Shown piece by piece: positions 9,427-45,516 of a DNA stretch of 64,000 nt. The position numbers and the translations under genes were made by a program. The stretch comes from a bacterium. Its GTDB lineage: Bacteria > Bacteroidota > Bacteroidia > Bacteroidales > UBA932. The stretch spans positions 25,287 through 89,286 of the forward strand of contig CAVGLS010000001.1 of assembly GCA_963630225.1 (NCBI GenBank), read 5' to 3'. Under the pieces are notes generated by a model. That model did no database searches. It saw nothing but the letters and a program-made list of their open reading frames with translations, and had not been told where the DNA came from. Within the stretch, counting starts at the first letter, position 1. Each line of letters starts with the position of its first letter.

Positions 9427-9511
9427 CGTCGTATTAAACCAGCCCGCAAAAATACTCAAAATAACGACACGCCGCCAGAGAGGGGACGCGCAAACGCAAA
9501 AGACGGTAAGA

Positions 9512-11499: not shown

Positions 11500-11540
11500 A
11501 AAATCTTTCGTGAAGATAGCCACATTTCTTAAAAAACGGA

Positions 11541-11610
11541 CCGTTCATCCCGAATTTTTATCAATTCGTCGGCGCGGCATTTCATATAATATGTTTTTTG
11601 GTTTTATTTG
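11541..11610 (+). promoter_or_regulatory. Putative LytTR direct-repeat site plus degenerate -7 element of the starch PUL
   Basis: CCGTTCATC (11541) and CAATTCGTC (11562), 21 bp period; TTTATTTG ends at 11610. Confidence 0.6.
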
Positions 11611-11634
11611 CCGGCGATAACACTAACTAATACG

Positions 11635-12975: not shown

Positions 12976-12990
12976 CCATCAAAATCACAA

Positions 12991-15999: not shown

Positions 16000-16014
16000 A
16001 CAGTGCATACAGAT

Positions 16015-17598
16015 ATGAAAAAGATCAAATATATGGCTTTCGCTCTTGCGACAGCGCTGCTTCTGGGTGCCGCTTCCTCCTGCGTAAAGGATCTCGACGT
16101 CACCCCGATAGACCCTAACACCACTCTGCCGGAGGATGTGCTCGACAGCCAGGACGCCTACACGCAGCTGCTCGCCAAGTGCTACCAGGGACTCTCCTGC
16201 TCCGCGTCCAGCGGCCCGAACGGCGACCCTGACATCGAGGGTGTGGACGGCGGCTACGGCCAGTATATCCGTGCCCTCTTCCACCTTGAGGAGCTCTGCA
16301 CCGACGAGGCGGTATGCTGCTGGAACGACGGCAACCTCTACGACATCCACCACCTCAACTGGACTTCATCCAACGAGTTCGTGGCCGCGATGTACTACCG
16401 CATCTACTACCAGATCAGCCTCTGCAACGAGTTCATCCGCCGCTCCAACGCGAGCGAGATCGAGGGCTACACCCTCAAGGCCGCCTACATCGCCGAGGCC
16501 CGTGCGCTGAGGCTCCTGAGCTACTACCACGCCATCGACCTCTTCGGCAACGTGCCTTTCGCGACCGAGGAGCAAAGCGTAGGCTCCACCGGACCTGAGC
16601 AGATCTCCCGCGGGGACCTCTTCGACTGGATGGTCGGCGAGTGCAAGGCCCTCATCGACGGAAGCGACCTCGCGGAAGCCGGCAAGAATGTGTACGGACG
16701 CTGCGACAAGGGTATGGTGATGATGATCCTCGCCAAACTCTACCTCAACGCCGAAGTATGGAAAGGGACCGCGATGTACGACAAGGCTGCCGAAGTCTGC
16801 GAGCAGATCATCGCCAAATATCCTCTTTATAAAGGCGGTTGGCAGGATCTCTTCTGCGCCGACAACCACCTCCGCACTGCCAACACCACCTACAATGGCG
16901 ACGAGATCATCTTCGCCGTGGAGCAGGACGGGCTTCTGACCCAGTCATACGGTGCGACCAACTACATCATCTTCGCCTCCACGGGAGGAAATATGGACGC
17001 TTCCGGTATGGGCATCTCCTCCGGCTGGGGCGGACTCTCTCTGACCGGAGCGTTCACCAGCAAGTTCGAGAATGGCGATGTCCGCGCCACATTCTACAAG
17101 GGTGAGGAGTTCGAGCAGTATATCGACGCCATCCGACGCGAGTCCGACAGCTGGTCCAACGGCTGGAAGAGCATGAAGTTCAGCAACGTCAACCACGACG
17201 GCAGCAAGGCGCAGACCGACGGTTTCGTGGACACCGACTTCCCTGTGTTCCGCAGCGCTGACGCATATCTCATGTATGCCGAGTGCGCGGCCCGCGGAGC
17301 GGCCGACAAGACCAAGGGAGAGACCTACCTCAACGCCATCCGCAGCCGTGCGGGTCTGGGTTCGCTTGCTCTCAGCCTCGACAACATCATCGACGAGCGC
17401 GGACGCGAGCTCTACTACGAGTGCGTGCGCCGTCAGGACCTCATCAGGTTCGGCCTCTTCACCTCCGGAGATTACCTCTGGGAGTTCAAGGGTGGCGTGC
17501 AGGAAGGCAAGGCGGTGGACGATCACTTCAATCTCTACCCTATCATCTCCAGCGACCTCAACTCCAATGGAAATCTTAAGCAGAACCCTGGTTATTAA
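16015..17598 (+). CDS. susD: SusD/RagB glycan-binding lipoprotein
   Basis: Lipobox ASSC, AEARALR, LFGNVP, LAKLYLN, ERGRELYYE..RRQDLIRFG, QNPGY. Confidence 0.96.
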   Translation: MKKIKYMAFALATALLLGAASSCVKDLDVTPIDPNTTLPEDVLDSQDAYTQLLAKCYQGLSCSASSGPNGDPDIEGVDGGYGQYIRALFHLEELCTDEAVCCWNDGNLYDIHHLNWTSSNEFVAAMYYRIYYQISLCNEFIRRSNASEIEGYTLKAAYIAEARALRLLSYYHAIDLFGNVPFATEEQSVGSTGPEQISRGDLFDWMVGECKALIDGSDLAEAGKNVYGRCDKGMVMMILAKLYLNAEVWKGTAMYDKAAEVCEQIIAKYPLYKGGWQDLFCADNHLRTANTTYNGDEIIFAVEQDGLLTQSYGATNYIIFASTGGNMDASGMGISSGWGGLSLTGAFTSKFENGDVRATFYKGEEFEQYIDAIRRESDSWSNGWKSMKFSNVNHDGSKAQTDGFVDTDFPVFRSADAYLMYAECAARGAADKTKGETYLNAIRSRAGLGSLALSLDNIIDERGRELYYECVRRQDLIRFGLFTSGDYLWEFKGGVQEGKAVDDHFNLYPIISSDLNSNGNLKQNPGY

Positions 17599-17604
17599 TA
17601 GATT

Positions 17605-19995
17605 ATGAAACGATTTATATACTCAAGCCTTATAGTTCTGGCGGGGTTGCTGACCGCATCCTGCGCCAAGGAGGATATGCGCGTCGTGTTCGATCCGAGC
17701 AATTCGACCGCTCCTGAAATCGGGACCATCACGGGCGCTACCCTCTCCGCCGAAGGCGAGCCTCTGACCTTCGAGTTCAAACTTCCTACGTTCGACGTGC
17801 AGGCCGGCAAGACCTACTCTCTCTTCGCTTCCTCTGCCGAGGCGTTCGCCGAGCCGACGAAGCTTGCCGCCACCATCACCGCCGACAATGAGGCCGGCAA
17901 GGCAAGCGTCTCCGTCAAGCAGTCCGATCTCAACTCTCTCGTGCTCAACTTCGGCGGAGAGCCGGAAGTGGAATTCACCGTCTACTTCAGGGTCAGCGCC
18001 TGGATCACCACCGACAAGGGCAGCGCAGTGGAGTCTTCGCTGAAGGTCTCCAACATCGTCGCCGCATCTTTCGTCCCTTACGACCAGACCATCCTCGACA
18101 AGGATATCTACGAGCATGTCTGGGTGCAGGGCGACTACTGCAGCTGGAGCCACGACAAGAGCCAGTTCCTCTACAATTACAGCAAGGACGGCAAGACATT
18201 CTCGGGAGTTGTGGATTTCGCCGACAAGGCAGCCAACGGCATCAAGTTCACCGGTGCCGCATCCTGGGACAACTCCACAGGAAACTGGGGATCTGAGGCT
18301 CAGGCCGAGGACTCTGAAGCCGGCAGCGTACAGCTCATAAACGGCAACGGCTCGCAGAACCTCATCTGCTACAACAAGCGCTTCTACAAATTCTCGCTGG
18401 ACAAGACCACCCTGCTTCTCACCAAGGAATGGGGGGCAGACAAGATCGGCATCGTCGGCACCATCAACAACTGGACCGCTCCTGATGTGGAGATGAACTA
18501 CAATGCAGACTATGTCCGCTTCTGGGCTGACGTCGAGATCGACGGCGACCAGGAGATCAAGTTCCGCGCCGATGAAGACTGGGTCTTGAACTGGGGTGTT
18601 GATGCCAAGGTCGGCGGAGACAACATAAAAGTCTCCACCGGCAAGTACCGCGTATATCTCGACCTCAACAAGGGCACGGTGGATCTCAACGCCAATATGT
18701 ACGGCAAGGATGAGCCTGCTGCGGGCGGCAACGAGCCTGAACCGGATAAGCCTGCCGTATGGTCCCTCATCGGAACCATCAACGGAGACTCTTGGGCCAC
18801 GGCCACCGACATCGATATGTCCAACATCGAGGGAGATATCTGGGTGGCCCGCAGCGTGGGGCTGACCGCAAGCGACGAGTTCAAACTCCGCGCAGACCAC
18901 GACTGGACAGTAACGGCAGGCGGCCCTGAGGCCAATTCGACGAGCACCATCGACCCGTCCAACCCTTACGACGTCTACAAGCCTGAGCTTGGCGTGGCGT
19001 TCGCTACAGGCGACAAGAACATCCAGGTGGGAGCCGAAGGCGTGTACGACGTCACTTTCGACTACGCCAACAGCACCATCCTCGTCGAGGAGCACAAGGC
19101 CGCTTACTCTCTCATCGGAGAGATCAACGGCGACAGCTGGAGCAAGGACGTGATTATGACTCAGAATGGCGACGTATGGACCAGCCCTGTGGTGAACATC
19201 ACTGGCGGCTTCAAGATCCGCTACGACTACTCCTGGGCCGACGAGAACTGCTACGGAGCGCCGGCGGACTTCACTCCTGCCATCGGAGAGGAATTCACGG
19301 CCGAGCAGCCGGGCGGCAACATCAACGTCCCGGAGGCTGGCGACTATAAAGTCATCTTCAACGCCGCCACCAAGGCTGTCACTATCGTTGCGGTAGCCTT
19401 CCCTGAGACTATGTATATGATAGGCCAGGACTTCGGAAGCTGGGACTGGTCGAGCGACGGCATAGTGGACCTTGTCCCGGTCTATAACCCGGACAACAAG
19501 GCCGACGGCCAGTTCTGGACGGTACGCTACATCAAGGCGGCTTCACCGTTCAAGTTCTGCTCAAAGAAGGAGTGGGTCGGCGACTTCTGCAGCCTCACGA
19601 CCAACGACGGATTCAGCGTCGAGGGCACAAACTGCGTTGTCGACAAGGACGGCCTCTACCTCATCCACATCGATCTCAAGAATGAGAAACTCCACGTTGA
19701 GCCTGCCCGCATCTACGGCATCGGCGACTGCTTCGGAGGATGGAACGAGGGCATCGAGACCGCTCTCTTCACCGCTGGCGGGGAGACCGCAAGCGCCACT
19801 CTCGCAGCCGACGGAGAGCTCCGTATGTATGTGGCTTCCGACATCGCCACCACCGACTGGTGGACCCGCGAATTCATCATCCTCGACGGCAAGATTGTCT
19901 ATAGAGGCACGGGCGGCGATCAGGAAAGAGTTGCCTGCAAGGCAGGTCAGACCGTCACCCTCAACTTCAACGCCGGGACCGGTGAAATCAAGTAA
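17605..19995 (+). CDS. SusE/SusF-like multi-module starch-binding surface lipoprotein
   Basis: Lipobox TASC followed by AKED; repeated Trp-rich modules (IVGTINNW, LIGTINGDSW, LIGEINGDSW; FKxR..xxW); C-terminal ELRMYV..DWWTREF; follows susD. Confidence 0.85.
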   Translation: MKRFIYSSLIVLAGLLTASCAKEDMRVVFDPSNSTAPEIGTITGATLSAEGEPLTFEFKLPTFDVQAGKTYSLFASSAEAFAEPTKLAATITADNEAGKASVSVKQSDLNSLVLNFGGEPEVEFTVYFRVSAWITTDKGSAVESSLKVSNIVAASFVPYDQTILDKDIYEHVWVQGDYCSWSHDKSQFLYNYSKDGKTFSGVVDFADKAANGIKFTGAASWDNSTGNWGSEAQAEDSEAGSVQLINGNGSQNLICYNKRFYKFSLDKTTLLLTKEWGADKIGIVGTINNWTAPDVEMNYNADYVRFWADVEIDGDQEIKFRADEDWVLNWGVDAKVGGDNIKVSTGKYRVYLDLNKGTVDLNANMYGKDEPAAGGNEPEPDKPAVWSLIGTINGDSWATATDIDMSNIEGDIWVARSVGLTASDEFKLRADHDWTVTAGGPEANSTSTIDPSNPYDVYKPELGVAFATGDKNIQVGAEGVYDVTFDYANSTILVEEHKAAYSLIGEINGDSWSKDVIMTQNGDVWTSPVVNITGGFKIRYDYSWADENCYGAPADFTPAIGEEFTAEQPGGNINVPEAGDYKVIFNAATKAVTIVAVAFPETMYMIGQDFGSWDWSSDGIVDLVPVYNPDNKADGQFWTVRYIKAASPFKFCSKKEWVGDFCSLTTNDGFSVEGTNCVVDKDGLYLIHIDLKNEKLHVEPARIYGIGDCFGGWNEGIETALFTAGGETASATLAADGELRMYVASDIATTDWWTREFIILDGKIVYRGTGGDQERVACKAGQTVTLNFNAGTGEIK

Positions 19996-20015
19996 CTGAC
20001 TCTATGCTTTATTCG

Positions 20016-20056
20016 GATGCGCCCGCGCCGCAGGGCCGGGCGCATCTGTTTTTTTT
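20016..20056 (+). terminator. Intrinsic terminator-like hairpin inside the PUL
   Basis: GATGCGCCCG / CGGGCGCATC 10-bp stem followed by a T run. Confidence 0.8.
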
Positions 20057-20063
20057 ATCATTT

Positions 20064-22052
20064 ATGAAAAGATTCCGTTCCTTCTGCATCGTCATCGCGC
20101 TTGCGCTGCTTGCGGGCTGCAACAAGCACTCCACAACTCCCGACCCGGGCCCCTCCCCTACTCCTGAGATTCCGGAGAGGACAGGCGAGAGCGGCATCAC
20201 CTACCAGCTGCTCGTGTATTCGTTCGCCGACAGCGACGGCGACGGCTGCGGGGACTTCAAGGGAATAGAATCCAAGCTCGACTATCTCAAACAGATGGGG
20301 GTGCAGGCCCTCTGGCTCTCCCCTATCCACAAGGCTTCCTCCTACCACGGCTACGATGTGCTCGACTACTCGAGCGTCAATCCGGACTACGGCACGGAGG
20401 AGGATTTCAAGTCCCTCGTCGGCGCGGCACACCGGAAGGGCATCAAGATATATCTTGACTATGTGCTGAACCATACTTCCAAGGACCATCCTTGGTTTCT
20501 CGACGCGAAAACGGACGCGGACAGCAAGTACCGCGACTATTATATATTCTCCGACGACCCGCGCTCCGACATCAGGGCCGGCAAGATTGCGATGATCTCC
20601 ACCGAAGGCGCGGGCGGATACGACTCCGGGCAGTGGTTTCCGGCGGTGAGCGGCGGCGACGGAGCGCAGAAGCTCAAGTTTACGCTCGCGCTCGACTCGT
20701 CCGGCAAACCTTCCACCCTCACGGTGGAGAAGACCGACGATGTGGGCAACAGCGGCGCCCCGGCAGGCATCTGGCTCTACTACGGCGACAACCTGATGCA
20801 GGAGTTCCGCTCCGCAGGCTCGGGTCTGTGCACCCTGTCGCTCGAGCTCCAGACCTCCTGGGGAGTGCTCGTAAGGACCAGCCAGAGCCAGTGGGACAGC
20901 CACAAATACGGAGCGCCGACCGGCAAGAACCGGCTCTCCTGGGGCGATCCGCTGAAGCTCTCCAACAGCGACAGCCAGGACATACTCCTGCCCGATATGG
21001 CCACCACTATGTACCACTCCCACTTCTGGACGGCCTGGTTTGCCGATCTCAACTACGGGCCCGCCTCCGAGTGCGAGACTTCAGAGGCGTTCAAGGCCGT
21101 CTGCGAGAGCGCCGACAAGTGGATAGGGCTCGGGGTGGACGGATTCCGGCTCGATGCCGTAAAGCATATCTACCACAATGCCTCCTCGGACGAGAACCCG
21201 ACGTTCCTCAAGAAATTCTACGACCGCTGCAACACATCCTACAAGGCTGCGGGCGGCAGCGGGGACATCTACATGGTGGGCGAGCACTTCAGCTCCGCCG
21301 CCGAGGTCGCGCCTTACTACAAGGGGATCCCGGCATTCTTCGAATTCAGCTTCTGGTGGACACTCAAGGATGCCATCAACTCCGGCACGGGCGGTGACTT
21401 CGTGGGCACGATACAGGGCTTCACCGGAGAATACTCCAAGTACCGCTCCGACTACATCGAGGCCACCAAGCTCTCCAACCACGACGAAGACAGGGCCGGC
21501 AACGACCTCGGACGCGACCGGGAGAAGATGAAGCTGGCCGCAGCGGTGCTGCTTACCGCCGGAGGGCAGCCTTACATCTATCAGGGCGAGGAGCTCGGCT
21601 ACTGGGGCTCCAAGTCGGGAGGCGACGAATATGTCCGCACCCCTATGATGTGGACCGCCGATGTGAGCGGGCTCGCGTCAGCGAAGCTCGGCGGCAAGAT
21701 CGACTACAATATGCTGAGCGCCGACATCTCGGTGGAGGCCCAGAGCCAGGACAGCGAATCGGTGCTTGCGGTCTACCGTCGGTTCGGCGAACTCCGCGAC
21801 CGCTACGCTTCCCTTGCCAAGGGCAGCTTCGACTTCTGCGCCGAAGTATCCTCAACCCCTGCGGTGTCGGCCTGGTACAGAAGCTACGGCGGGCAGAGGG
21901 TGCTGGTGGTGCACAACTTCGGCGGGGCCAAGACCAGCGTCAACCTCTCCTCCGACAATCTCGACAATCCTATAGGCACACAGGGCTCCGTCGCCGTCAA
22001 CGGCAGCAGGCTGACGCTCGGTCCGCGGGCATCGGCGGTGTTCCTCCAATAA
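20064..22052 (+). CDS. susG: SusG-like lipoprotein alpha-amylase (GH13) with an internal CBM58-like insertion
   Basis: Lipobox LAGC; YQLLVYSFADSDGDG, SYHGYD, DGFRLDAVKH, VGEH, LSNHDEDR; long insert between LNHTS and ADLNY. Confidence 0.87.
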   Translation: MKRFRSFCIVIALALLAGCNKHSTTPDPGPSPTPEIPERTGESGITYQLLVYSFADSDGDGCGDFKGIESKLDYLKQMGVQALWLSPIHKASSYHGYDVLDYSSVNPDYGTEEDFKSLVGAAHRKGIKIYLDYVLNHTSKDHPWFLDAKTDADSKYRDYYIFSDDPRSDIRAGKIAMISTEGAGGYDSGQWFPAVSGGDGAQKLKFTLALDSSGKPSTLTVEKTDDVGNSGAPAGIWLYYGDNLMQEFRSAGSGLCTLSLELQTSWGVLVRTSQSQWDSHKYGAPTGKNRLSWGDPLKLSNSDSQDILLPDMATTMYHSHFWTAWFADLNYGPASECETSEAFKAVCESADKWIGLGVDGFRLDAVKHIYHNASSDENPTFLKKFYDRCNTSYKAAGGSGDIYMVGEHFSSAAEVAPYYKGIPAFFEFSFWWTLKDAINSGTGGDFVGTIQGFTGEYSKYRSDYIEATKLSNHDEDRAGNDLGRDREKMKLAAAVLLTAGGQPYIYQGEELGYWGSKSGGDEYVRTPMMWTADVSGLASAKLGGKIDYNMLSADISVEAQSQDSESVLAVYRRFGELRDRYASLAKGSFDFCAEVSSTPAVSAWYRSYGGQRVLVVHNFGGAKTSVNLSSDNLDNPIGTQGSVAVNGSRLTLGPRASAVFLQ

Positions 22053-22066
22053 ACCCATATCCCTCT

Positions 22067-27219
<5,153 letters not shown>

Positions 27220-27222
<3 letters not shown>

Positions 27223-27227
27223 TTTTG
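27220..27227 (+). promoter_or_regulatory. Possible internal -7 promoter element for malQ
   Basis: TAATTTTG overlapping the GH97 stop codon, 23 bp before the ATG at 27251. Confidence 0.5.
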
Positions 27228-27250
27228 TGCCCGTTTTTCCGGAGAAGAAT

Positions 27251-29119
27251 ATGGAAGTAAGATTTGCGATAAAATACTGGACCGAGTGGGGCGAGAGTCT
27301 CACCCTGATGCTCGGCGGCAAGAAATACCCTATGGAATGGGGCGACGGCGCCGTCTGGCACGTGACCGTCAAGAACTGCAGCGCCGCAGCGCTCAAGGAC
27401 TACGGCTATGTGGTGATGCGCGGCGGACTGATATGGCGCACGGAGTGGAAGCACCACAGCTCCCGGCTCGCCAAGATCATCGAAGACCGGTGGATTGACT
27501 GCCCGATAGAGGGCTGCCCTTTCCCCCGCGAGCACCAGGCGGCGATGTTCGACCGTCCGGGTTTCAGGGGAGCGGGCACGGCGGTGCCGGTGTTCTCCCT
27601 CAGGAGCAGCGACGACTTCGGAGTCGGAGAATTCCGCGACCTGCACGCTCTGATCGACTGGGCTGCGGCCACCGGACAGTGCATACTCCAGCTCCTTCCG
27701 GTCAACGACACCACCCGCAAAGGGGAATGGAAGGATTCGTACCCCTACAGCCCGGTGTCGTCGTTTGCGCTGCACCCTATGTATATGCACCTGCAGAGCC
27801 TCGGCATCAGGGAGAACGCCGAGTTCAAGAAGCTCCAGAGCGAGCTGAACTCCCTGCCGGAAATCGACTGGCCGAGAGTGTTCAAGGCAAAGATGAAGTA
27901 TATACGGGAGGCTTTCGTCCGGCGCGGAGAGAAGGATATGAAGACTCCGGGATTCAAGGCTTTCGTCAAGGACAACGAGGCCTGGCTCGACGAATACGCC
28001 AAGTTCTGCGCGATGCGCGACTCTCTGGAGGCCGACTACTACCGCTGGATGCAGTGGCATCTGGACAGGCAGTTCTACGCCGAGGCCAAGTATGCCCGCA
28101 GCAAGGGGATCTCCCTCAAAGGTGACTTGCCTATCGGAGTCAGCTCCGACAGCGCGGAAGCCTACTGGCACCCCGAGCTCTTCAACCTCGACTCCTCCGC
28201 CGGCGCTCCGCCCGACTTCTTCAGCAAGGACGGCCAGAACTGGGGCTTCCCGACCTACAACTGGGACGCTATGGCAAAGGACGACTATGCGTGGTGGAAG
28301 TCCCGTCTGCGCAAGATGTCGCGCTACTTCGACGCTTTCCGCATCGACCATATCCTCGGGTTCTTCCGCATCTGGGAGATCCCTGCCGACAGGAGCAGCG
28401 GACTCGACGGGCATTTCAACCCCGCCCTGCCGTATTCCGCCGAGGAGATCGGTCAGATGGGGCTGCCTCTGGAGGGTCTCTTCCACGAGGACCCGCGCAA
28501 TCCGGGGATGTACCAGCCTCTCATCTGCCCGGACTCGCAGCGGCTTCCGCAGTGGCAGCAGGAGAGGTTCGGCGCCCTCTACAACGACTTTTTCTACCAC
28601 CGTCACGAGGAGTTCTGGCGCCGCAACGCGGAGAAGAAACTTCCCGCCCTGCTCGCTGCGACCGGGATGCTCGCCTGCGGCGAAGACCTGGGGATGGTGC
28701 CGGGCTGCGTGGCGGGAGTGATGGAGCACGAGAAGATACTCTCGCTGAAGATGCGCGGGATGCAGAACGAGGGAGCGTGGAACGCCCTCAGCGTCTGCGC
28801 CACTTCCAGCCACGATATGGAGACCCTGCGCATGCAGTGCGACCACGACCCCGAGCCGTGGGAGATCAGGAATATGCTATGGGAGTTTCTCGCGTCACCT
28901 TCGATGCTGGCGATATTCCCGCTTCAGGACTGGCTCGCGCTGGATCCGTCGCTCCGACGTCCGGAGAGAGGGGAGGAGAGGATCAACCAGCCGGCGGACT
29001 CCAACCACCACTGGCGTTTCCGCCTGCATATAGGGCTCGACCGTCTCGCCGACGCATCACGGCTCAACTCCACCATCTGCGGCCTGGTCAAGGACAGCGG
29101 ACGCCACCACAACCAATAG
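27251..29119 (+). CDS. malQ: 4-alpha-glucanotransferase (GH77) with a degenerate CBM20-like N-terminus
   Basis: PVFSLRS, QLLPVNDT, KGDLPIG, GAPPDFF..GQNWGFP, RIDHILGFFRIW, GEDLG, SSHD, ERINQP. Confidence 0.93.
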   Translation: MEVRFAIKYWTEWGESLTLMLGGKKYPMEWGDGAVWHVTVKNCSAAALKDYGYVVMRGGLIWRTEWKHHSSRLAKIIEDRWIDCPIEGCPFPREHQAAMFDRPGFRGAGTAVPVFSLRSSDDFGVGEFRDLHALIDWAAATGQCILQLLPVNDTTRKGEWKDSYPYSPVSSFALHPMYMHLQSLGIRENAEFKKLQSELNSLPEIDWPRVFKAKMKYIREAFVRRGEKDMKTPGFKAFVKDNEAWLDEYAKFCAMRDSLEADYYRWMQWHLDRQFYAEAKYARSKGISLKGDLPIGVSSDSAEAYWHPELFNLDSSAGAPPDFFSKDGQNWGFPTYNWDAMAKDDYAWWKSRLRKMSRYFDAFRIDHILGFFRIWEIPADRSSGLDGHFNPALPYSAEEIGQMGLPLEGLFHEDPRNPGMYQPLICPDSQRLPQWQQERFGALYNDFFYHRHEEFWRRNAEKKLPALLAATGMLACGEDLGMVPGCVAGVMEHEKILSLKMRGMQNEGAWNALSVCATSSHDMETLRMQCDHDPEPWEIRNMLWEFLASPSMLAIFPLQDWLALDPSLRRPERGEERINQPADSNHHWRFRLHIGLDRLADASRLNSTICGLVKDSGRHHNQ

Positions 29120-37600: not shown

Positions 37601-38396
37601 CAACGACGAGATGGACAGCGCTTCGTCGCTTTTCGGCGATGTGGAGGAGATGAAGCCGACGCGTCCGGAAGCCCCGGCCTCCTCCGGCGAGCAGGACACG
37701 CTCGCCCTGCTCCAGAAAGAAAAAGAATTCGTGGGGATGTACCTTTCCGCACACCCGCTGGACCGCTACCGCTTCGAAATCGAGAACTTCACGAGCTGCC
37801 CGCTTTCTGCCATCGACTCTCTGGTGGAGGAGCAGGAGTCCCGGAAGAAGCCTTGCAGGGCCTGCGTGGCCGGTATAGTGACGGATGTCAAGACCATCAC
37901 CACCAAGAACGGCTCGCCGGGCGCAAAAGTCATCCTTGAGGACTTCGACGGCAACTGCGAGTTCGCCCTCTTCGGCAAGGAGTATCAGGATTTTCTGCCC
38001 TATATGCAGCCTCACGCCCAGATATTCATCGAGGGCGAGATCAGCGAACGGTACTACCTCAAGAAGGAGGACAAGGCCGCCGGCAAGGCTGCCCCTTATG
38101 CTTTTAAATTCAAGAAAATAGCCCTGCTGGGCAATGTTGGAGGCGACCTGATCTCCGAGTTTGTGCTGCACATCGACTCCTCCCGGCTCTGCCCGGAGTT
38201 CCGCAAGGACCTCGTCAGGCTGCTGAAAGACGCCAAGGGCAGCATCCCTCTCACCGTCAACCTCAGCGACGCATCAAGCGGCTACAGGATAGACTTCCGC
38301 TCCAAGAAATACTCCGTCTGCGTCAACCAGGAACTGATTGACCGCCTTGGCAGGCTGAATATAGGCTACAGCTTCACAAGAAGGCAGTGCCTGTAG
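34689..38396 (+). CDS. dnaE: DNA polymerase III alpha subunit
   Basis: PHP HLHVHTQYS..TDHG, GPGRGSAAGS, MPDIDVDF, KMDFLGL, YAFNKSH. Confidence 0.98.
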   Translation: MSFVHLHVHTQYSILDGMSDIEKLFRRAEELGMPGLAITDHGNMYGVKDFKDVSAKHPGVKPVIGCEIYVTRHFDHRLKDNDHKKYYHLILLAKNYDGYRNLMKIVSTGHIEGMYYKPRVSHEVVEKYHEGLICCSACMAGEIPRGILAGDAEGVDRAIEWHKRVFGEDYYLEVMLHRTEVPGLSQDLYGKQREYCAEIFRLAERHSVKVVATNDVHFVRKEDGPAHDRLICLTTNSAIEDPKRLRYTQQEYLKSEEEMAALFPDHPEALTNTLEVLDKVENYAIDRGHVLPKFQIEQSFLDNIDFYLDKYSDIIENGRYEVTKDHDGNIVGKTDRGDEFRRSVAFLCHLTYEGARERYGETLTQEQSERIHFELMTISYMGFPDYFLIVQDFINWGRRNGVSVGPGRGSAAGSCVAYCLHITNLDPIRYDLLFERFLNPERISMPDIDVDFDDEGRYRVIQYVQERYGADHISHVITFGTMAAKLAVKDVARISNMSIPESNRLTKMIPDKPITVRENGEDKEYKPTLANSVKYVKELKNEYENGDPLVKEVLNYALQLEGCIRQTGIHACAMIIGRGNLTDYIPITMGEDKATGQQVWVSQYEGTKIEDVGMLKMDFLGLKTLSIIDRCIALVKKRFGTAIDIEKIPIDDPAVFDLYSRGDTKSIFQFESGGMKEWLMKLRPERFEDLIAMNALYRPGPMDYIPNFVAGKNDPSKITYDLPDMEEYLKETYGVTVYQEQVMRLSQKLAGFSKGKADKLRKAMGKKKKDVLDSLKTSFMEGALKNGHPKEVLEKIWKDWEAFAKYAFNKSHATCYAWVSYQTAWLKAHYPSEFQASNLTQNSANMEEMKEIMADCRKGGIKVLSPDINESEAQFSVNHQGDIRFGLSGLKGFGDNLVAGILKERETGGEFSDLYDFIERMSSIINRRALETLIYSGAFDSFGLKRTQYFLPCKNGELFIDELVRYANLYRNDEMDSASSLFGDVEEMKPTRPEAPASSGEQDTLALLQKEKEFVGMYLSAHPLDRYRFEIENFTSCPLSAIDSLVEEQESRKKPCRACVAGIVTDVKTITTKNGSPGAKVILEDFDGNCEFALFGKEYQDFLPYMQPHAQIFIEGEISERYYLKKEDKAAGKAAPYAFKFKKIALLGNVGGDLISEFVLHIDSSRLCPEFRKDLVRLLKDAKGSIPLTVNLSDASSGYRIDFRSKKYSVCVNQELIDRLGRLNIGYSFTRRQCL

Positions 38397-39070
38397 CTGT
38401 CCCCCACGGGGACCGTCTTCCCGTTGTCCATCTCCACCACGCCCCTGCTGACTTCGCGGATATGGGCGAGATTGACCATATATGAGCGGTGCACCCGGAC
38501 GAAACGGCTGTCAGGAAGCCTCTCAAGCAGTTTCGCCATGCTCATCAGCACGAGTTTCGGGGCCGTCTCTCCGCTGACATAGATCTTGAGATACTCGCTC
38601 ATACTCTCCACATAGATGATGTCGGCAACATTGACCTTGATTATCTTATAGTCCGCCTTGAGGAAAAGATAGTCTTCCTGTGGAGTCTCGGCCCGTCCGC
38701 GGGAAGCCTCAAGCAAAGCGAAGCGTTCTTTCAACTTCTCCGCCGAAGCGACAAACTCCTTGAGACTGAACGGCTTGAGGAGGTAGTCCACCGCATCCAC
38801 CCTGAACCCGTCCACTGCATACTCCGAGTATGCGGTGGTGAATACCGTCAGCGGTCGGTGCCGCAGCAGGCGCACAAAGTCCAGCCCGGACAGGTCAGGC
38901 ATATTGATGTCCAGAAACATGGCGTCCACTCCCCCGCCGTCAATCAGCCGGCTCGCCTCAAGTGCGCTGCCGCAGGTTCCCGCGAGTTCCAGGAACGGGA
39001 CTTTGGAGATATACATTTCGAGCTGCCTGAGAGCCAGGGGCTCGTCATCCACGGCAATCACCCTTATCAT
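38366..39070 (-). CDS. LytTR-family response regulator
   Basis: VDDEPLA, FLDINMP, TTAYSEYA, DYLLKP, FVRVHRSY. Confidence 0.94.
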   Translation of the reverse strand: MIRVIAVDDEPLALRQLEMYISKVPFLELAGTCGSALEASRLIDGGGVDAMFLDINMPDLSGLDFVRLLRHRPLTVFTTAYSEYAVDGFRVDAVDYLLKPFSLKEFVASAEKLKERFALLEASRGRAETPQEDYLFLKADYKIIKVNVADIIYVESMSEYLKIYVSGETAPKLVLMSMAKLLERLPDSRFVRVHRSYMVNLAHIREVSRGVVEMDNGKTVPVGDSYRHCLLVKL

Positions 39071-40223
39071 CGCTGTCCTCCGTTTTTTCGGCCCGCGCAG
39101 GCAGCACGAGCAGCAGTTCATAAGCCTCGTCCCGCACCTCTATGTGGAGGACATAGTTGTCTCCATACAGCAGCTCCAGGCGCTTGCGGATGTTGTCGAG
39201 ACCGATACCGGCCTCCTCCCGGCGGTCCTCCCTTCCGGGGGGACGGCTGTTGGCGCAGCGGAATATCAGCCTACCCTTCTCTATCGCCGCGCTGATGCGG
39301 ATGAACCCTCCGCTCTCGGCACTGATCCCGTGTTTAAAGGCGTTCTCCACTATCGTCGCCATTGTAAGCGGCGGCACCTCCGCATCGGCCCCGTTGTTCG
39401 GGAAGTCAAAGACGATGTCCACATCGTCCCTGTACCTGAGCCGCATCAGGGCGAGATAGTGCGTGAGGAACTCTTCCTCTCTGGCCAGAGGCACGGTCGG
39501 AGTGTTGTTGTCGTAAAGCATGTAGCGCATCAGGCGCGAGAGCTCAACAATGCTGTCCTTCGCCTTGTCGGGGTCTATATCCACGAGGGCGTGGATATTG
39601 TTGAGCGTGTTCATAAAGAAGTGCGGATTGATCTGATATCTCAGATACTCAAGCCGGTAGCGCAGGTTTTCCTTTTCCAGGACCTCGGCCTTCCTCTCGT
39701 CCCGGAGAAAGCGGAGATAGTACTTCGCTCCAAGATTGACACCCAGCATCAGCAGAGCCACGACTATCTTGAGGTAGCCGGGGCGCATAGGCTTGCTGCC
39801 CGGGATTTCTCCCGTATGCTGAAGATTGTTGTCCCGTATATGCTCGTCGGGGGGAGGAGGGGGCATCTGTCCCAACTGCTCTTTGGGCTCAGGAGGATGC
39901 ATCCCGCCGCGTTCCACACCCTCAAAGAGCATTATATAGGCGGCGAAAAGCCCCAGCGCCAGAAGCACGGACAACGAGTACGACAGCGGCCTGTTCTTCT
40001 CGGTAAGCAGCGGAGCGATCAGGTAGTTGTGCACAAGGAAGAGCACAAGGAACGGAACCGTCGAAAGCCAGAGCCTCCAGATGTCCTGAAACTCGAACTT
40101 AAGCGACGGCTCCGAGAGCAGTTGAAGCAGGGACACCACCGCCTCGACGAGGAACACCCCCGCCCATATCAGAGGCACTATCCAGCGTCCAAGGCCGGTA
40201 TCCTTTCTGTCGCTTGCCGTCAT
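39045..40223 (-). CDS. LytS/YehU-type sensor histidine kinase
   Basis: About four TM segments with a Pro-rich loop; LRYQINPHFFMNTLNN, ENAFKHG, GIGLDN. TAATTTTG -7 element at 40237-40244 (minus). Confidence 0.93.
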   Translation of the reverse strand: MTASDRKDTGLGRWIVPLIWAGVFLVEAVVSLLQLLSEPSLKFEFQDIWRLWLSTVPFLVLFLVHNYLIAPLLTEKNRPLSYSLSVLLALGLFAAYIMLFEGVERGGMHPPEPKEQLGQMPPPPPDEHIRDNNLQHTGEIPGSKPMRPGYLKIVVALLMLGVNLGAKYYLRFLRDERKAEVLEKENLRYRLEYLRYQINPHFFMNTLNNIHALVDIDPDKAKDSIVELSRLMRYMLYDNNTPTVPLAREEEFLTHYLALMRLRYRDDVDIVFDFPNNGADAEVPPLTMATIVENAFKHGISAESGGFIRISAAIEKGRLIFRCANSRPPGREDRREEAGIGLDNIRKRLELLYGDNYVLHIEVRDEAYELLLVLPARAEKTEDSDDKGDCRG

Positions 40224-40269
40224 ATCGGTTTTTCTGCAAAATTACGATATTATAGCCAAGCCTCCGCTC

Positions 40270-40338
40270 CCTTTCGTTGAGAAAAACGGCCCGTTCGCTG
40301 AAAAAACGCACGGCAATTCCTTTTTATGGCCGATTTTG
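40270..40338 (+). promoter_or_regulatory. Putative LytTR direct-repeat site plus degenerate -7 element of the VTC operon
   Basis: CCTTTCGTTGAGAAAA (40270) and CCGTTCGCTGAAAAAA (40291), 21 bp period; CGATTTTG ends at 40338. Confidence 0.65.
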
Positions 40339-40365
40339 CGGCGAAAACCTTAAAAGCAGTGTGTT

Positions 40366-42153
40366 ATGAAAGGAAGATTGATTGTGTTATCGGCCATTGC
40401 GCCGCTGCTCGGGGGCTGCCTCTATGGAAGCATAGACATCGACGAGAGCACGACAGGTGAGACGGACACTCAGACCGTCAGCATCGAAGACGAAGAGGAT
40501 GATATCGCAAACACCTCTGCGGACCGGACAGTCAGCATCGTATTCTCCGACACCTCCGGGGCCTGCGTCAGCGGGGACGATCTCGGCATCGTCTCCGTCA
40601 GCGGGAACGACGTCACCGTCATCAACGGAAGCGAGGAAGTCATCAGATATGAGCTCTCCGGCAGCACATCCGACGGTTATTTCAAGCTCTACAGCGACGC
40701 GAAGCAGATTGTCGCGCTCAACGGAGTCAGCATCACAAATCCGTCAGGGGCGGCCATCAACAATCAGAGCCATAAGCGCACCTTCGTCGTGCTGAGCGAC
40801 AGCAGCACCCTCAAGGACGGGGCGTCGGACGCGGACGGAGACTACCCCGACGAGGACGGGAGCGAGGATATGAAAGCGGCCTTTTTCAGCGAGGGGCAGC
40901 TCATCTTCAGCGGAGACGGCAGTCTGACGGTCACCGCCACGGGCAAATCCGGAGTCACCAGCGACGACTATATCCGATTCGCTGACGGCCCTTCTTTGAG
41001 CGTCAGCTCCGCTGCGGGGCACGGTCTCCGCGCCAAGGATGCGATTATCGTCAGCGGCGGAGTCATCGACGTATCCGTCTCAGGGACAGGCAAGAAAGGC
41101 TTTTCGACTGACGGTTTCGCCTATTTCGGCGGAGGAGACGTCACAATCCGCACCAGCGGAGACGCCGGCACCGTGGACGGAGAGCTCAGCGGAGTGGCCG
41201 GGGTGCGTGCCGACGGCCTCTTTACGATTACGGGCGGGAATCTCGACATCAGCTCAACCGGCAAGGGAGCCAAGGGCATAAGCAGCGACGGTGACGGCAA
41301 TTTCGAGGGCGGAAGCGTCAACATCGTCACGAGCGGAGCCAACTACGGCAGCTCTTCCGGCGGAGGAGGAGGCTTCGGGTGGCCCGGCGGAGAGGGTTCA
41401 TCATCGTCATCCAAGTCCTCAAAGGGCATCAAGGTCGACGGCGACCTATACTTCAGCGGGGCTGACGTGACGGTGAGATGCAGCTCCCACGAGGGGATTG
41501 AAGCCAAGGGGACGATCAGTATCACCGCCGGTTCGGTAAGCAGCACCGCCTATGACGATGCCATCAACTCCGGCTCCGATATGAGCATAAGCGGCGGGCT
41601 GGTCTATGCCCTGTCCACCGGCAATGACGGTCTGGACGCCAACGGCAACCTCTACATCAGCGGCGGGGTGGTCTATGCCGTGGGCTGCGGCAGCCCGGAG
41701 GTGGCGGTCGACGCCAACACCGAGGGGGGTTACAACTTCTACCTGAGCGGCGGCACCCTCATCGCCGTCGGAGGCATCGAATCCGGCTCTAAACTCAGCC
41801 AGGCCGTGCTTTCTGCGGGAAGTTGGACGAAATCGAGTTCTTATGCCCTCTGCGACGGGGACAGCCTGCTCTTTGCGTTCAAGACCCCTGCAAGCGGCGG
41901 AAGCGGCGTAATACTCTCTTGTCCGACCCTGCAGAGCGGCAGCAGCTACACCCTCAAGTCCGGGGTCAGCATCTCCGGAGGCGTCACATACTTCGATGCG
42001 GTAATATTCGACGCCCAGGTCAGCGGGGGCAGCTCGACGAGCCTCACCGCAAGCTACCAGAGCGGAGACAACCAGGGAGGCGGAGGAGATAACCCCGGCG
42101 GCGGCGGAAATCCCGGAAGCGGCGGCGGAAATCCCGGCGGAGGGCCGAGGTAA
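40366..42153 (+). CDS. Cthe_2159/DUF4353-like beta-helix carbohydrate-binding-domain lipoprotein
   Basis: Lipobox LGGC followed by an acidic stretch; LNGVSITNPSGAAIN, KAAFFSEGQLIFSG, repeated xDGx.ISGG units, NDGLDANG; Gly/Asn/Pro tail. Confidence 0.85.
   Translation: MKGRLIVLSAIAPLLGGCLYGSIDIDESTTGETDTQTVSIEDEEDDIANTSADRTVSIVFSDTSGACVSGDDLGIVSVSGNDVTVINGSEEVIRYELSGSTSDGYFKLYSDAKQIVALNGVSITNPSGAAINNQSHKRTFVVLSDSSTLKDGASDADGDYPDEDGSEDMKAAFFSEGQLIFSGDGSLTVTATGKSGVTSDDYIRFADGPSLSVSSAAGHGLRAKDAIIVSGGVIDVSVSGTGKKGFSTDGFAYFGGGDVTIRTSGDAGTVDGELSGVAGVRADGLFTITGGNLDISSTGKGAKGISSDGDGNFEGGSVNIVTSGANYGSSSGGGGGFGWPGGEGSSSSSKSSKGIKVDGDLYFSGADVTVRCSSHEGIEAKGTISITAGSVSSTAYDDAINSGSDMSISGGLVYALSTGNDGLDANGNLYISGGVVYAVGCGSPEVAVDANTEGGYNFYLSGGTLIAVGGIESGSKLSQAVLSAGSWTKSSSYALCDGDSLLFAFKTPASGGSGVILSCPTLQSGSSYTLKSGVSISGGVTYFDAVIFDAQVSGGSSTSLTASYQSGDNQGGGGDNPGGGGNPGSGGGNPGGGPR
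42098..42137 (+). repeat. 21-bp-period tandem repeat encoding GGGNPG
   Basis: GCGGCGGCGGAAATCCCGG at 42098 and 42119. Confidence 0.8.
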
Positions 42154-42578
42154 TGACAAAACAGATCGAAATGAAACGTATAATATTGACACTTTGCCTT
42201 TTGTCTCTTGTGTTCCCCTACCTGAGGGCACAGGAGTCCGGCTCTTCAGACAAGAGCGGCCTGGTCGTGCGGGAGTGGAACAGCGACATCGGCTCCGAGC
42301 AGAAAAGGCTTGACCGCGTGACGACCTACAATGACCTCGGGCGCAAACAGGAGGAGATAGAGTACGGAAAGGACGGGCAGAAGTGGCGCAAGCGCTACGA
42401 ATATGACGCCGAGGGGAGACTTCTCCGGGTGCTCGTCTATGGCCACAGCGACAAGCTGGACAACGTCCGCAAGTTCGAGTTCAATGAGATGGGCAGGAAG
42501 AAGACTGAATATGTCTACGACGCGAAAGGCAAGCTCCGCCGGATAAAATACTACGAATACGAGCGCCGCGATGATTGA
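42153..42578 (+). CDS. Small exported protein with YD/RHS-like repeats
   Basis: Signal peptide ending LRA-Q; YNDLGR, YDAEGR, FNEMGR, YDAKGK. TAATG overlap upstream; alternative start at 42171. Confidence 0.78.
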   Translation: MTKQIEMKRIILTLCLLSLVFPYLRAQESGSSDKSGLVVREWNSDIGSEQKRLDRVTTYNDLGRKQEEIEYGKDGQKWRKRYEYDAEGRLLRVLVYGHSDKLDNVRKFEFNEMGRKKTEYVYDAKGKLRRIKYYEYERRDD

Positions 42579-43422
42579 CGAGTCCATCACAAGCGGATTT
42601 TCCCCAATAGGGCTGGAGGAGATGGATACAATTCGCCTGATGAACAGGACGGACACCAAATACCTCACCGACAGCCTCAAACTCAAGGAAATCCTGTCCG
42701 ATGCCTGCCGCTGCGGCTACCGCATCCTGGAGACTGACGGCCACAGGCTCAACGCCTACGACAGTCTCTACTACGACACGGCGGAGCTGAAGATGTTTGT
42801 CGACCACCGCAACTGCCACCTTGTCCGGGAGAAAGTCAGGACCAGAACCTACCTCTGTTCCGGACAGACCTTTCTGGAAGTGAAACGCAAGAACAACCAC
42901 GGCAGAACCAGAAAGAAACGGAGGGAGATAGACATAGCGCTGTTTGACGACTTCGGCGAGTCGGCATCGGCGTGCAGTTGGCTCGTCTGCCACTCGGACT
43001 ATTCCCCGGAGGTGCTCTCCCCGTCGGTGGAGACTATGTTCCGTCGTATGACTCTCGTGAATCCGGAGAAGAGCGAAAGGCTCACCATCGACACGGAAAT
43101 CCGCTTCAAAAATCCCAGGACAGGCCTGAACTCCGGCCTCGGAGAAGCCGTCATCATCGAGCTGAAGCAGGACGGGAGGGCGCTGAGCCGGATGAAGAGC
43201 ATCCTCTCCGCCCACCGGGTCAAGCCTGCCAGGATAAGCAAATACTGCATAGGAATCACTGCCACCGACCCCGCCGCAAGGGCCGGAAGATTCAAGCAGA
43301 AAGCGAGAATGATAGAGAAAATCAATAATAACTTTTATCTGAAATGTTGTACACCGACTACGGCGGAGCTCCTCTTGACGAGAGCGAACTCCTTGACGTC
43401 CAATCAGTCCTTGAGCCTGTGA
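42571..43422 (+). CDS. VTC-domain (polyphosphate polymerase-like, triphosphate tunnel) protein
   Basis: LMNRTDTKY, SLYYDT, REKVRTRTY, FLEVKRK, RLTIDT, IIELK, SKYC; no signal peptide. Confidence 0.88.
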   Translation: MIDESITSGFSPIGLEEMDTIRLMNRTDTKYLTDSLKLKEILSDACRCGYRILETDGHRLNAYDSLYYDTAELKMFVDHRNCHLVREKVRTRTYLCSGQTFLEVKRKNNHGRTRKKRREIDIALFDDFGESASACSWLVCHSDYSPEVLSPSVETMFRRMTLVNPEKSERLTIDTEIRFKNPRTGLNSGLGEAVIIELKQDGRALSRMKSILSAHRVKPARISKYCIGITATDPAARAGRFKQKARMIEKINNNFYLKCCTPTTAELLLTRANSLTSNQSLSL

Positions 43423-44117
43423 TGACTACGGCCCAAAACCTTACGGAACTCGCGCTGAGATTCTTCCTTAACCTGCTCGTGTGCTGGATCATCGTCCGGG
43501 TCTTCTACTTCCGCAAGAGCCGCCGCAGGGACTACTACTTCACCTTCATCTGCTTCTCCTCCGCAATGCTGCTCCTTCTGTATATGATGGGCAACGTGGA
43601 GGTCGGGGTGGGACTGACCCTGGGTATGTTCGCCATCTTCGGAGTCATACGCTACCGGACGGAAACGGTGCCGATACGGGAGATGACCTATCTTTTCGTA
43701 ATCATTGCGATTGCGGCTGTCAACGGACTCGCTCCCCTGTACCGGCTGAGCGGAACTCTGGACGGCAACCCGCATTATCTGCTCTCGTATGGAGACATCC
43801 TGATTACGGTGCTGACCAATCTGCTCGCCGTAGGACTTATCTGGGCTCTCGAAAGCAGCAGGACGCTCAAACATAGCGCCACCAAGATAATCCTCTACGA
43901 CCGCATAGAACTCATCGTGCCGGAGCGGCGGGAAGAACTCCTCGCCGATATCGACAAGCGCTGCGGCATCAGGGCCGACCGTATCGAAATCGGAAACATA
44001 GACTTCCTCAAAGATGCGGCCTATATCAAGATTTACTATACTCCGGACTCTGAGGAAATCTCCACGATAAGCTCAGTAACCCGATATAAACAATTCACAG
44101 AACAACAGGAATTATGA
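43344..44117 (+). CDS. DUF4956-family inner-membrane protein
   Basis: RRDYYFTF, LGMFAIFGVIRYRTE..IREMTYLF, C-terminal YDRIELI..IDFLKD. Alternative start at 43422. Confidence 0.87.
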   Translation: MLYTDYGGAPLDESELLDVQSVLEPVMTTAQNLTELALRFFLNLLVCWIIVRVFYFRKSRRRDYYFTFICFSSAMLLLLYMMGNVEVGVGLTLGMFAIFGVIRYRTETVPIREMTYLFVIIAIAAVNGLAPLYRLSGTLDGNPHYLLSYGDILITVLTNLLAVGLIWALESSRTLKHSATKIILYDRIELIVPERREELLADIDKRCGIRADRIEIGNIDFLKDAAYIKIYYTPDSEEISTISSVTRYKQFTEQQEL

Positions 44118-44896
44118 GACACTCTTACATCATCATCGCCGCACTTCTGATGCTGCTGCCGCTCGGAGCGGCCTCACAGGATATCTCCCTGCGCAGCCGC
44201 GCTTCTCTGGCGGCGGACTGGAAAATCCGCAAGGGTCTTCACCTCGATGCGGAATACGAACTTCGCACCGGCGACGGACTGTCGGGGGTCGAGCGGCACC
44301 AGCTCTCCCTCGGAGTGTCCTACAAACTCAGCGACCACTTCACGGCAGGAGCAGGCTACTCCTACATAGGGCATTTCGGCTCGGACGGGAGCTTCAAGCC
44401 GCGCCATCGGATGATTGTCGAAATGAGATATAGGCTGGATAAGGGAGACTGGAGGTTTTCCGTAAAGGAGGCTCTGCAGCTCACGCACCGCGCCTACGAC
44501 TTCAACCGCTTCCAGCAGACGCCCAACGCCCTCGAACTTAAGTCCAGGGTCAAGCTCAGCTACAGAGGGCTGAAGAAACTCGAACCGTACGCATATATGG
44601 AGCTCCGCAACATCTTCAACGGACCGAGCTGCTCCGCGACTTACTACAGCGCTTCAGGGGGATACGGCAACTACGAATTCCTCGGATATAAAGATGTGTA
44701 CATCAATCGTTTGAGAGGAGTCCTCGGAGTGGAGTGGAGTTTTAACAAGAAGCATTCGCTCGACTTCTATGCCCTGTTCGACCGCACCCGCGACAGAGTG
44801 ACGGACACCGACAAATCAGGCACGGAACTCAAGTCCATAGGCTGGGAGAACGCAAACAGAGCGGCCCTCTGCATCGGATATAAAATATCGTTCTGA
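44114..44896 (+). CDS. DUF2490-like outer-membrane beta-barrel protein
   Basis: Signal peptide, alternating amphipathic strands, PRHR, LKSRVKLSY, PYAYMEL, C-terminal IGYKISF. Confidence 0.78.
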   Translation: MRHSYIIIAALLMLLPLGAASQDISLRSRASLAADWKIRKGLHLDAEYELRTGDGLSGVERHQLSLGVSYKLSDHFTAGAGYSYIGHFGSDGSFKPRHRMIVEMRYRLDKGDWRFSVKEALQLTHRAYDFNRFQQTPNALELKSRVKLSYRGLKKLEPYAYMELRNIFNGPSCSATYYSASGGYGNYEFLGYKDVYINRLRGVLGVEWSFNKKHSLDFYALFDRTRDRVTDTDKSGTELKSIGWENANRAALCIGYKISF

Positions 44897-44928
44897 AGAG
44901 GGCCGCAGAGAGGATTGCGCCTGACGGC

Positions 44929-45516
44929 TCAGCGGCTGAGCTTGAATCCTGCGTCGATGCTCTTGGCCGACGAGAGGACAGACGAGAGGCTCTTGATGGT
45001 GGAGTTGTTGGTCTTGGAGGCATAAGCGACCACCTTCTTGGCAAATTCGAGGAACTTCTCTCCGTTGAAGAGAAGTTCGCAGCCGTCAGTGGTGGTGCTG
45101 ACAGTCCCGTCGAGCTGGAGGTAAGTCAGCGCCTTTCCAAACTTTATGGTGACGGCGTTCCCGTCCTGGGACCAGGTGCCGGGAAGAGACATCTTGCCGA
45201 ATTTCATCGTGAAGTTTCCTCCCTCTTCAAACACGAAAGTGGCCGCTCCGGCCTTGAGGCCGACCTTGGAGAATGCGTTGTCGATTTTGGTCTCGACCGT
45301 GCTGAGGGCCGCGCTTCCGGCAGCGGAAGTCAGGACATTGTCGCTGCGGAGCGCAGTGCCAACTCCCTGATATGTCCAGGTCCCGGCCATCTCTGTGGTC
45401 GTGGCGGACGATACTACGCTTGAGGCTACGCTCTTGAGCGCATTAAGGATGTCGCTCTGTGCGCTGAGGGACACTGTCATAAGAGACAGCGCCGCGATGA
45501 TGATGATTTTTTTCAT
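44929..45516 (-). CDS. DUF4923-like (lipocalin-like) exported protein
   Basis: Signal peptide; GTWTY..G, SDNVL..AAG..A, ELLF, C-terminal GFKL. Confidence 0.72.
   Translation of the reverse strand: MKKIIIIAALSLMTVSLSAQSDILNALKSVASSVVSSATTTEMAGTWTYQGVGTALRSDNVLTSAAGSAALSTVETKIDNAFSKVGLKAGAATFVFEEGGNFTMKFGKMSLPGTWSQDGNAVTIKFGKALTYLQLDGTVSTTTDGCELLFNGEKFLEFAKKVVAYASKTNNSTIKSLSSVLSSAKSIDAGFKLSR

Follow-up and report, generated by a model that had tools for sequence, protein, structure and literature searches.

The window analysed here, 64,000 nucleotides (nt) of contig CAVGLS010000001.1 from a Bacteroidales bacterium of the UBA932 lineage (host genome of 1.76 Mb, 96.6% complete), carries an operon of five co-oriented genes (40366-44896; all coordinates are window positions) that is a real, conserved and uncharacterised system, a variant of the module formed by a VTC-type enzyme and the membrane protein DUF4956. 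The reading we favour, with a confidence somewhat short of even, is that the operon couples the synthesis of polyphosphate (polyP) to its export. A kinase and a regulator gene lie divergently at 38366-40223. The five genes and this pair, which a preliminary description had reported, are all in place, and Pfam assigns them to families as follows (lengths in amino acids, aa):

38366..39070, minus strand: LytTR response regulator, 234 aa (Pfam LytTR 2.8e-20, Response_reg 5.1e-17)
39045..40223, minus strand: LytS-type PF06580 histidine kinase (Pfam 2.4e-24; hydropathy)
40273..40301, plus strand: direct repeat TTCGYTGA-N13-TTCGYTGA, a likely LytTR binding site (repeat scan)
40366..42153, plus strand: Cthe_2159 beta-helix lipoprotein, 595 aa (PF14262 1.5e-40)
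42153..42578, plus strand: small basic YD-repeat protein with signal peptide (Pfam RHS/YD repeat 3.8e-5)
42571..43422, plus strand: VTC (Vtc4-like triphosphate tunnel) enzyme, 283 aa, clade A, cytoplasmic (PF09359 2.4e-27)
43344..44117, plus strand: DUF4956 inner-membrane protein, MgtC/SapB-like (PF16316 4.1e-45)
44114..44896, plus strand: DUF2490 predicted outer-membrane beta-barrel with C-terminal Phe (PF10677 2.1e-16)

The enzyme had been described as VTC-type, and profile, fold ranking and residue equivalence all identify it as Vtc4-like. Used as a profile against the PDB, it matched only Vtc4, Vtc3 and Vtc2 (Vtc4 at 2.3e-23); a search with the single sequence gave no PDB match. For a model of the protein (predicted local distance difference test, pLDDT, 91.5), VTC structures headed the Foldseek ranking (E 2e-13), ahead of ygiF, a triphosphatase (5e-9), SaTTM and the class IV cyclases. 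Stand-alone CYTH/TTM triphosphatases such as E. coli ygiF and SaTTM share the tunnel fold (E 5e-9 and weaker), but they rank below the VTC structures, and the window enzyme is set apart from them by the first-strand motif RxDxK and by a gene tied to a membrane partner. Residues K30, R90, R92, K105, R159, K224, S223 and E197 correspond to K200, R264, R266, K281, R361, K458, S457 and E426 of Vtc4. All 56 aligned enzymes keep the equivalents of K200, R264, R266, K281, R361 and K458, and 55 keep that of E426; the motifs singled out earlier (RxDxK, KxRxR, ExK and SKY) are present and conserved. In Vtc4 these positions bind the triphosphate and Mn, and 10.1101/2023.01.27.525886 reports lower polyP in yeast when they are lost; the invariant K458 is the residue that sets active Vtc4 apart from Vtc2 and Vtc3. 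Judged by its sequence, the VTC protein is very probably an active triphosphate enzyme, and we infer that it has polymerase activity. Its 283 residues gave no match to SPX or PF02656 and hold no fused three-helix membrane domain, and hydropathy found no hydrophobic segment in them.

The enzyme does not occur alone. Of 59 Bacteroidota loci anchored on VTC, 58 contain DUF4956, and in 56 the two genes are direct neighbours; the one remaining locus is cut by a contig end. Starting from DUF4956, 80 loci of Verrucomicrobiota, Chloroflexota, Acidobacteriota, archaea and others contained VTC in 73 cases and CotH in 53; models of the barrel, YD protein, Cthe_2159 protein and adaptor, which were built on Bacteroidota and may miss distant forms, found no match in these 80. 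Within the host genus VTC was present in 46 of 121 sampled genomes, and 40 loci were fetched from the 45 VTC-positive genomes other than the host's, some on contigs that end early. All 40 have DUF4956, 38 the YD gene, 35 DUF2490 and 28 Cthe_2159, in nearly fixed gene order; the kinase is in 17, divergent upstream in 16, and neither CotH nor an efflux adaptor was found in any of the 40. Phylogenetic profiling of the families thus showed co-occurrence far beyond chance. The five-part machine proposed in the preliminary description stands as a conserved operon, but since the lipoprotein is in only 28/40 and the kinase in 17/40 of these loci, the core is YD-VTC-DUF4956-DUF2490, with the lipoprotein, the repeat and the two-component pair as an optional add-on; on the same counts an obligate five-gene machine was rejected. 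Variant arrangements include two tandem Cthe_2159 genes ahead of YD-VTC (L030, L186 and L254) and a YD gene in first place with the lipoprotein second (L187, L220 and L229). Genus loci lacking the YD gene contained no YD-lipoprotein fusion. Across 151 genomes of the order, VTC was matched in 74, DUF2490 in 65 and Cthe_2159 in 22 (three weak matches dropped); VTC and DUF2490 lie at most 6 kb apart in 33, and all three genes are together in 8. Bacteroides thetaiotaomicron has VTC and a DUF4956-DUF2490 pair (BT3498-99). Close homologs of the host's DUF4956 protein carry Bacteroidales labels.

Split by their first-strand motif, the 56 aligned enzymes form clade A (RxDxK, 30) and clade B (RxExK, 26). 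Clade A loci carry DUF2490 in 21 cases, a YD-type gene in 19, Cthe_2159 in 9, CotH in one and the adaptor in none. In clade B loci the counts are 24 for the adaptor (one of them 6 kb away), 9 for CotH, one for Cthe_2159 and none for DUF2490. Barrel and efflux adaptor are an exclusive swap between the enzyme clades. The adaptor family is similar to AcrA/EmrA-type membrane fusion proteins (2e-6), and the window system differs from the adaptor/TolC form of the VTC-DUF4956 cassette in that a membrane fusion protein occurs in 0/30 clade A and 0/40 genus loci. The envelope-crossing role suggested for the operon accords with this replacement and with the conserved basic residues of the barrel. We favour synthesis and export because the enzyme is Vtc4-like, is never alone, and belongs to clades that use two exclusive envelope-crossing kits, one of which is efflux hardware. 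That hardware is seen in one run of DUF4956, adaptor, outer-membrane efflux protein, VTC and a lamin-tail protein (L059:4785-10147); another locus has efflux protein, VTC, DUF4956 and CotH (L050:5788-11577).

One predicted part per compartment had been proposed, in agreement with the signal peptides and hydropathy: the Cthe_2159 protein has a lipobox Cys18, and the YD protein and the barrel have predicted cleavable signal peptides. The barrel carries a net charge of +2 to +19 in 19/19 homologs, with at least 10 conserved K/R columns. Among these are K/R pairs two residues apart in predicted strands (R97/R99, K143/R145 and R199/R201), a spacing as would be expected of lumen-facing residues. The YD protein, likely periplasmic from its sequence, is also basic (+2 to +9 in 16/16 homologs). 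The lipoprotein is acidic overall (pI 4.1) and belongs to the Cthe_2159 beta-helix family, with 139.6 bits to PF14262 against a cut-off of 25.8 and a match to PDB 4peu (E 4e-11). The Cthe_2159 family binds Ca. Along the coils, invariant basic residues are interleaved with acidic ones (36 homologs), a pattern that fits a groove for a metal-bound polyanion, and the protein is likely a polyanion/Ca binder. Its C-terminal Gly-rich tail (42081-42150), with GGGGNPG-like repeats, is of low complexity and varies among homologs.

From these parts we infer a mechanism in which the Vtc4-like enzyme would contact DUF4956 and build polyP from ATP at its cytoplasmic face, and DUF4956 would pass the polymer outward to the periplasm as a channel. 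Carriage and retention of the polymer from there on would fall to the YD protein and the predicted barrel, both basic, together with the beta-helix lipoprotein. This lipoprotein would take the place of end-user that the CotH kinase would have in other loci, with polyP as its ligand held for example as a Ca-polyP store or coat, and the divergent pair would induce the operon. The fuller form of this proposal is possible though doubtful: bacteria would have a third polyP synthase, independent of PPK, in which a soluble relative of Vtc4 sits on a channel of the MgtC fold. Its polymer would be threaded over both membranes by interchangeable exits (efflux adaptor plus TolC, or YD protein plus basic barrel) and reach surface users that are likewise interchangeable, either CotH kinases or a beta-helix that binds Ca; in the genus the system would replace ppk1-ppx.

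The distribution of PPK1 bears on that last point. PPK1, PPK2 and PPX were not found in the host genome, so a cytoplasmic product would be without its usual consumers. Among the 121 genus genomes PPK1 was found in 15 and PPK2 in none, and VTC and PPK1 overlapped in 0 genomes against 5.7 expected (Fisher 4.8e-4). A tree of dnaE alone, covering 116 of the 121 genomes (the other five had no listed match), spreads PPK1 over 9 separate clades and gives 30 changes of state for VTC. Under a tree-based null, simulated with matching count and patchiness (74-689 accepted runs per rate), zero overlap has a P of at most 0.005. PPX adjoins PPK1 in 2/2 genus genomes tested and is absent from 3/3 VTC genomes. 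Because VTC and PPK1 exclude each other in the genus, the result suggests that their roles overlap there.

Several observations weigh against coupled synthesis and export. The position of Vtc4 Tyr359 is Phe157 in the window enzyme, and Phe stands there in 28/30 clade A enzymes against Tyr in 26/26 of clade B; according to 10.1101/2023.01.27.525886, yeast Vtc4 Y359F lowers polyP. The PPK1 exclusion is local to the genus, in counts without control for habitat or assembly gaps: across the order VTC and PPK1 occur together in 43 genomes against 48.5 expected (p 0.06, not significant), and the idea that VTC generally takes the place of PPK1 was rejected at this level. The barrel is absent from 5/40 and the lipoprotein from 12/40 genus loci. 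Elsewhere, away from VTC, the DUF2490 barrel adjoins Cthe_2159 (G316, G318) or CotH (G357, G343, G319, G338, G030), which suggests that barrel and surface protein form a submodule of their own. DUF4956 shows no overall positive charge (net -11 to +7).

DUF4956 is moreover MgtC-like, a further point against the export proposal. Its model has five long helices and a C-terminal alpha/beta (ACT-like) domain, and hhalign against the MgtC family (12 proteins) aligned it full-length with probabilities of 96.8 and 97.5 over 219 and 204 columns, at 9-14% identity. PF02308 (MgtC) matched 26 of 73 DUF4956 members at E up to 1 (best 4.2e-6), the window protein not among them. PMC12345266 already names a streptococcal DUF4956 homolog MgtC plus ACT, and states that Salmonella MgtC acts on ATP synthase and PhoR. 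The same source reports for Streptococcus intermedius that a VTC deletion kept aggregation and Pel, whereas deletion of MgtC-ACT or CotH lowered aggregation by more than half in sputum medium; this genetics cuts against tight VTC/DUF4956 coupling. Searches with the DUF4956 monomer fold, by Foldseek and in a wide structural search, gave no significant match, the best in the latter being Z 8.7 to small viral helical bundles and Z 6-7 to RND membrane domains. The matches listed did not include Vtc1, and kinship with Vtc1 is possible. Since the protein is full-length MgtC/SapB-like and no Vtc1-like fold was retrieved, the channel role ascribed to DUF4956 would be by analogy only.

The profile match with its ACT-like domain, the Phe of clade A and the diverging S. 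intermedius phenotypes would suit a regulatory module, in which DUF4956 is an MgtC-like membrane adaptor tuning another membrane machine, VTC is a nucleotide or triphosphate hydrolase or sensor feeding it, and the remaining three products, barrel, YD protein and lipoprotein, are envelope proteins under shared regulation. Four loci in which the VTC-DUF4956 pair stands alone among housekeeping genes (L036, L037, L062 and L070) point the same way. We regard this as unlikely, if a serious contender: it leaves the exclusive barrel/adaptor swap and the PPK1 exclusion in the genus unexplained, and the MgtC signature (GxER, AGxRT, DPxR, GxGFxGAG, GLTTAA) is absent from DUF4956, whose invariant columns differ and include an invariant RxR in its place. 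The arginines R103 and R105 are invariant and R60 and R62 common, and by the positive-inside rule all four would face the cytoplasm. DUF4956 also differs from the MgtC/SapB family, with which it shares the membrane and ACT-like domains, in lying nearly always beside a VTC gene.

The direction of transport could also be inward. The repeat claimed in the preliminary description was found at 40273-40301 as the sole perfect copy in the genome, and three more one-mismatch copies of this LytTR-type repeat lie elsewhere (G000:C3:44576, C5:21272, C28:21966). It occurs in 32/37 loci with the divergent kinase, in 8/25 with the lipoprotein but no kinase in view, and in 0/31 without the lipoprotein (near-identical regions and those with less than 350 nt upstream were dropped, and kin are not independent). 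The spacing is 13 in 40 regions and 14 in one, with no repeat at other spacings between 8 and 21. Repeat and kinase thus travel with the lipoprotein. Inducible uptake loci of Bacteroidota are usually laid out in this way, with a kinase that travels with a surface protein. In an import system the lipoprotein would capture Ca-polyP or another condensed phosphate of this sort, which would enter by way of the basic barrel and DUF4956; the tunnel enzyme would hydrolyse this ligand or make ATP from it, and the divergent pair would induce the operon in response to it. The basic charge of the barrel suits this; PPX and PPK2 were not found in the genome, so the tunnel enzyme could be the consumer; and in one genus locus a Na/Pi cotransporter gene with PhoU domains directly follows the barrel gene (L029:11385-13061). 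We think import rather unlikely, given that the sister clade uses efflux adaptors, with an outer-membrane efflux protein in L059 and L050, that secreted CotH kinases of related loci would need a phosphoryl donor outside, and that the operon holds no TonB-dependent transporter. As for the LytS/LytTR pair, earlier called dedicated, its divergent placement is borne out, while its dedication would be a further step, the genome carrying three such regulator genes. Hydropathy predicts three membrane segments in the kinase and no large outer sensor domain.

A last alternative centres on a glycan: the substrate of barrel and lipoprotein would be an acidic polysaccharide, either oligogalacturonate or a glycan made by the cell itself, with phosphate groups or energy for its modification coming from VTC-DUF4956. 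Cthe_2159 proteins are reported to bind cellulose and polygalacturonic acid (PMC6712302), Gram-positive relatives of the module sit in pel loci (10.1101/768473), and the host genome has three GH28 genes. The best PDB match of the barrel profile was the oligogalacturonate porin KdgM; the anion-selective monomeric porins KdgM and NanC are alike in being small barrels with basic residues, but the match is weak (E 0.011), below significant homology and at the level of a shared barrel. The operon is flanked by dnaE on one side and a DUF4923 gene on the other, not by a glycosyltransferase, lyase or SusC/D gene, and the glycan proposal does not predict the exclusion of PPK1; we judge it improbable.

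Set beside known systems, the operon may work like the eukaryotic VTC complex, on the export reading, but is not a member of it. With that complex (yeast Vtc4, Vtc3 or Vtc2, and Vtc1; PDB 3g3q, 7ytj, 8i6v) it shares the tunnel fold, the basic triphosphate ligands, S457, E426 and a membrane partner encoded alongside the enzyme. It differs in an enzyme without SPX or fused membrane helices and with Phe at Tyr359, in a five-helix, MgtC-like partner with an ACT-like domain in place of the three-helix Vtc1 type, and in an added outer-membrane stage. The Gram-positive pel accessory genes (cotH, polyphosphate polymerase, DUF4956 and DUF4832) likewise have the VTC and DUF4956 pair with an exported partner. 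This cotH/polymerase/DUF4956 set is in print, with no mechanism given in the accessible text of 10.1101/768473 and of PMC12345266 (S. intermedius SIR_1591-1594). In contrast to it, the window operon has a clade A enzyme, barrel, YD protein, Cthe_2159 lipoprotein and LytTR pair, and no pel genes beside it; CotH, noted earlier as missing from the operon, was not found anywhere in the 96.6% complete genome either. PMC12345266 reports a failure to find the trio outside pel loci, but in the 80 DUF4956-anchored loci cotH/VTC/DUF4956 occurs in many settings besides these.

In two of these settings DUF4956-CotH-VTC adjoins an O-antigen ligase-like gene and a C-methyltransferase (L064:5148-12039), and a Planococcus plasmid carries VTC-DUF4956-CotH with a glycosyltransferase (L079:5389-12824). 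Archaeal records from Methanoregulaceae and Woesearchaeota (L095, L119) have DUF4956-CotH-VTC, VTC and CotH both match in a Methanosarcina acetivorans control, and archaeal VTC loci bear on the origin of eukaryotic Vtc4. Across the order VTC and CotH co-occur in 57 genomes against 42.6 expected. Over whole genomes CotH and Cthe_2159 do not strictly alternate, since most Cthe_2159-bearing genomes of the order also have CotH; in L183 both are nearby.

Searches of open PMC and bioRxiv text returned no paper pairing DUF4956 with VTC, and none pairing Cthe_2159 with polyP, and they listed no study of a bacterial VTC enzyme. The term undescribed, used earlier, holds for the function but not for the VTC-DUF4956 gene pair, which is already in print. 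New here are the form with Cthe_2159 and LytTR but no CotH, the exchange of barrel for adaptor that follows the enzyme clades, with Phe at Tyr359, and the PPK1 exclusion. VTC-type polymerases are described as the eukaryotic route to polyP and PPK as the bacterial one (PMC12526157), and the source and export route of extracellular bacterial polyP are presented as open questions in PMC13484657. The latter reports no VTC4 homolog in B. cereus, so the window operon would not explain that case. If the export proposal is true, it would name a widespread route (VTC matches in 74/151 sampled genomes of the order), assign a molecular role to DUF4956, to DUF2490 and to a fold of the MgtC type, and provide a phosphoryl donor for secreted CotH kinases; the window form, without CotH and without PPK, is a clean test case.

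Turning to the layout, the four junction overlaps described earlier can all be read in the sequence: the TAATG (42151-42155), an overlap of 8 nt (42571-42578), one of 79 nt (43344-43422) and the ATGA (44114-44117). A second Met of the YD protein (42171) is common to 16/16 aligned YD proteins, and the TAATG overlap may not be used, as homologs share this later start. The 79-nt overlap arises from a C-terminal tail of VTC that most relatives lack, and the part of the enzyme past residue 260 is modelled with low confidence (pLDDT 50-58). In Atlas searches the only clusters returned were those of DUF4956 and others that were unnamed or RHS-like, and no RNA holder was listed for 39000-45000. The DUF4923 gene, for a lipocalin-like exported protein (44929-45516, minus strand), converges on the operon 32 nt past the barrel stop, across a G+C-rich stretch. 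Elsewhere in the window, a starch utilisation locus (9395-29116) comprises a major facilitator superfamily (MFS) gene, SusC, SusD, SusE/F, a SusG-like amylase, a second amylase, GH97 and GH77; a second kinase of the PF06580 family is encoded divergently from this locus (10360-11499, minus strand), followed by a LytTR-like gene.

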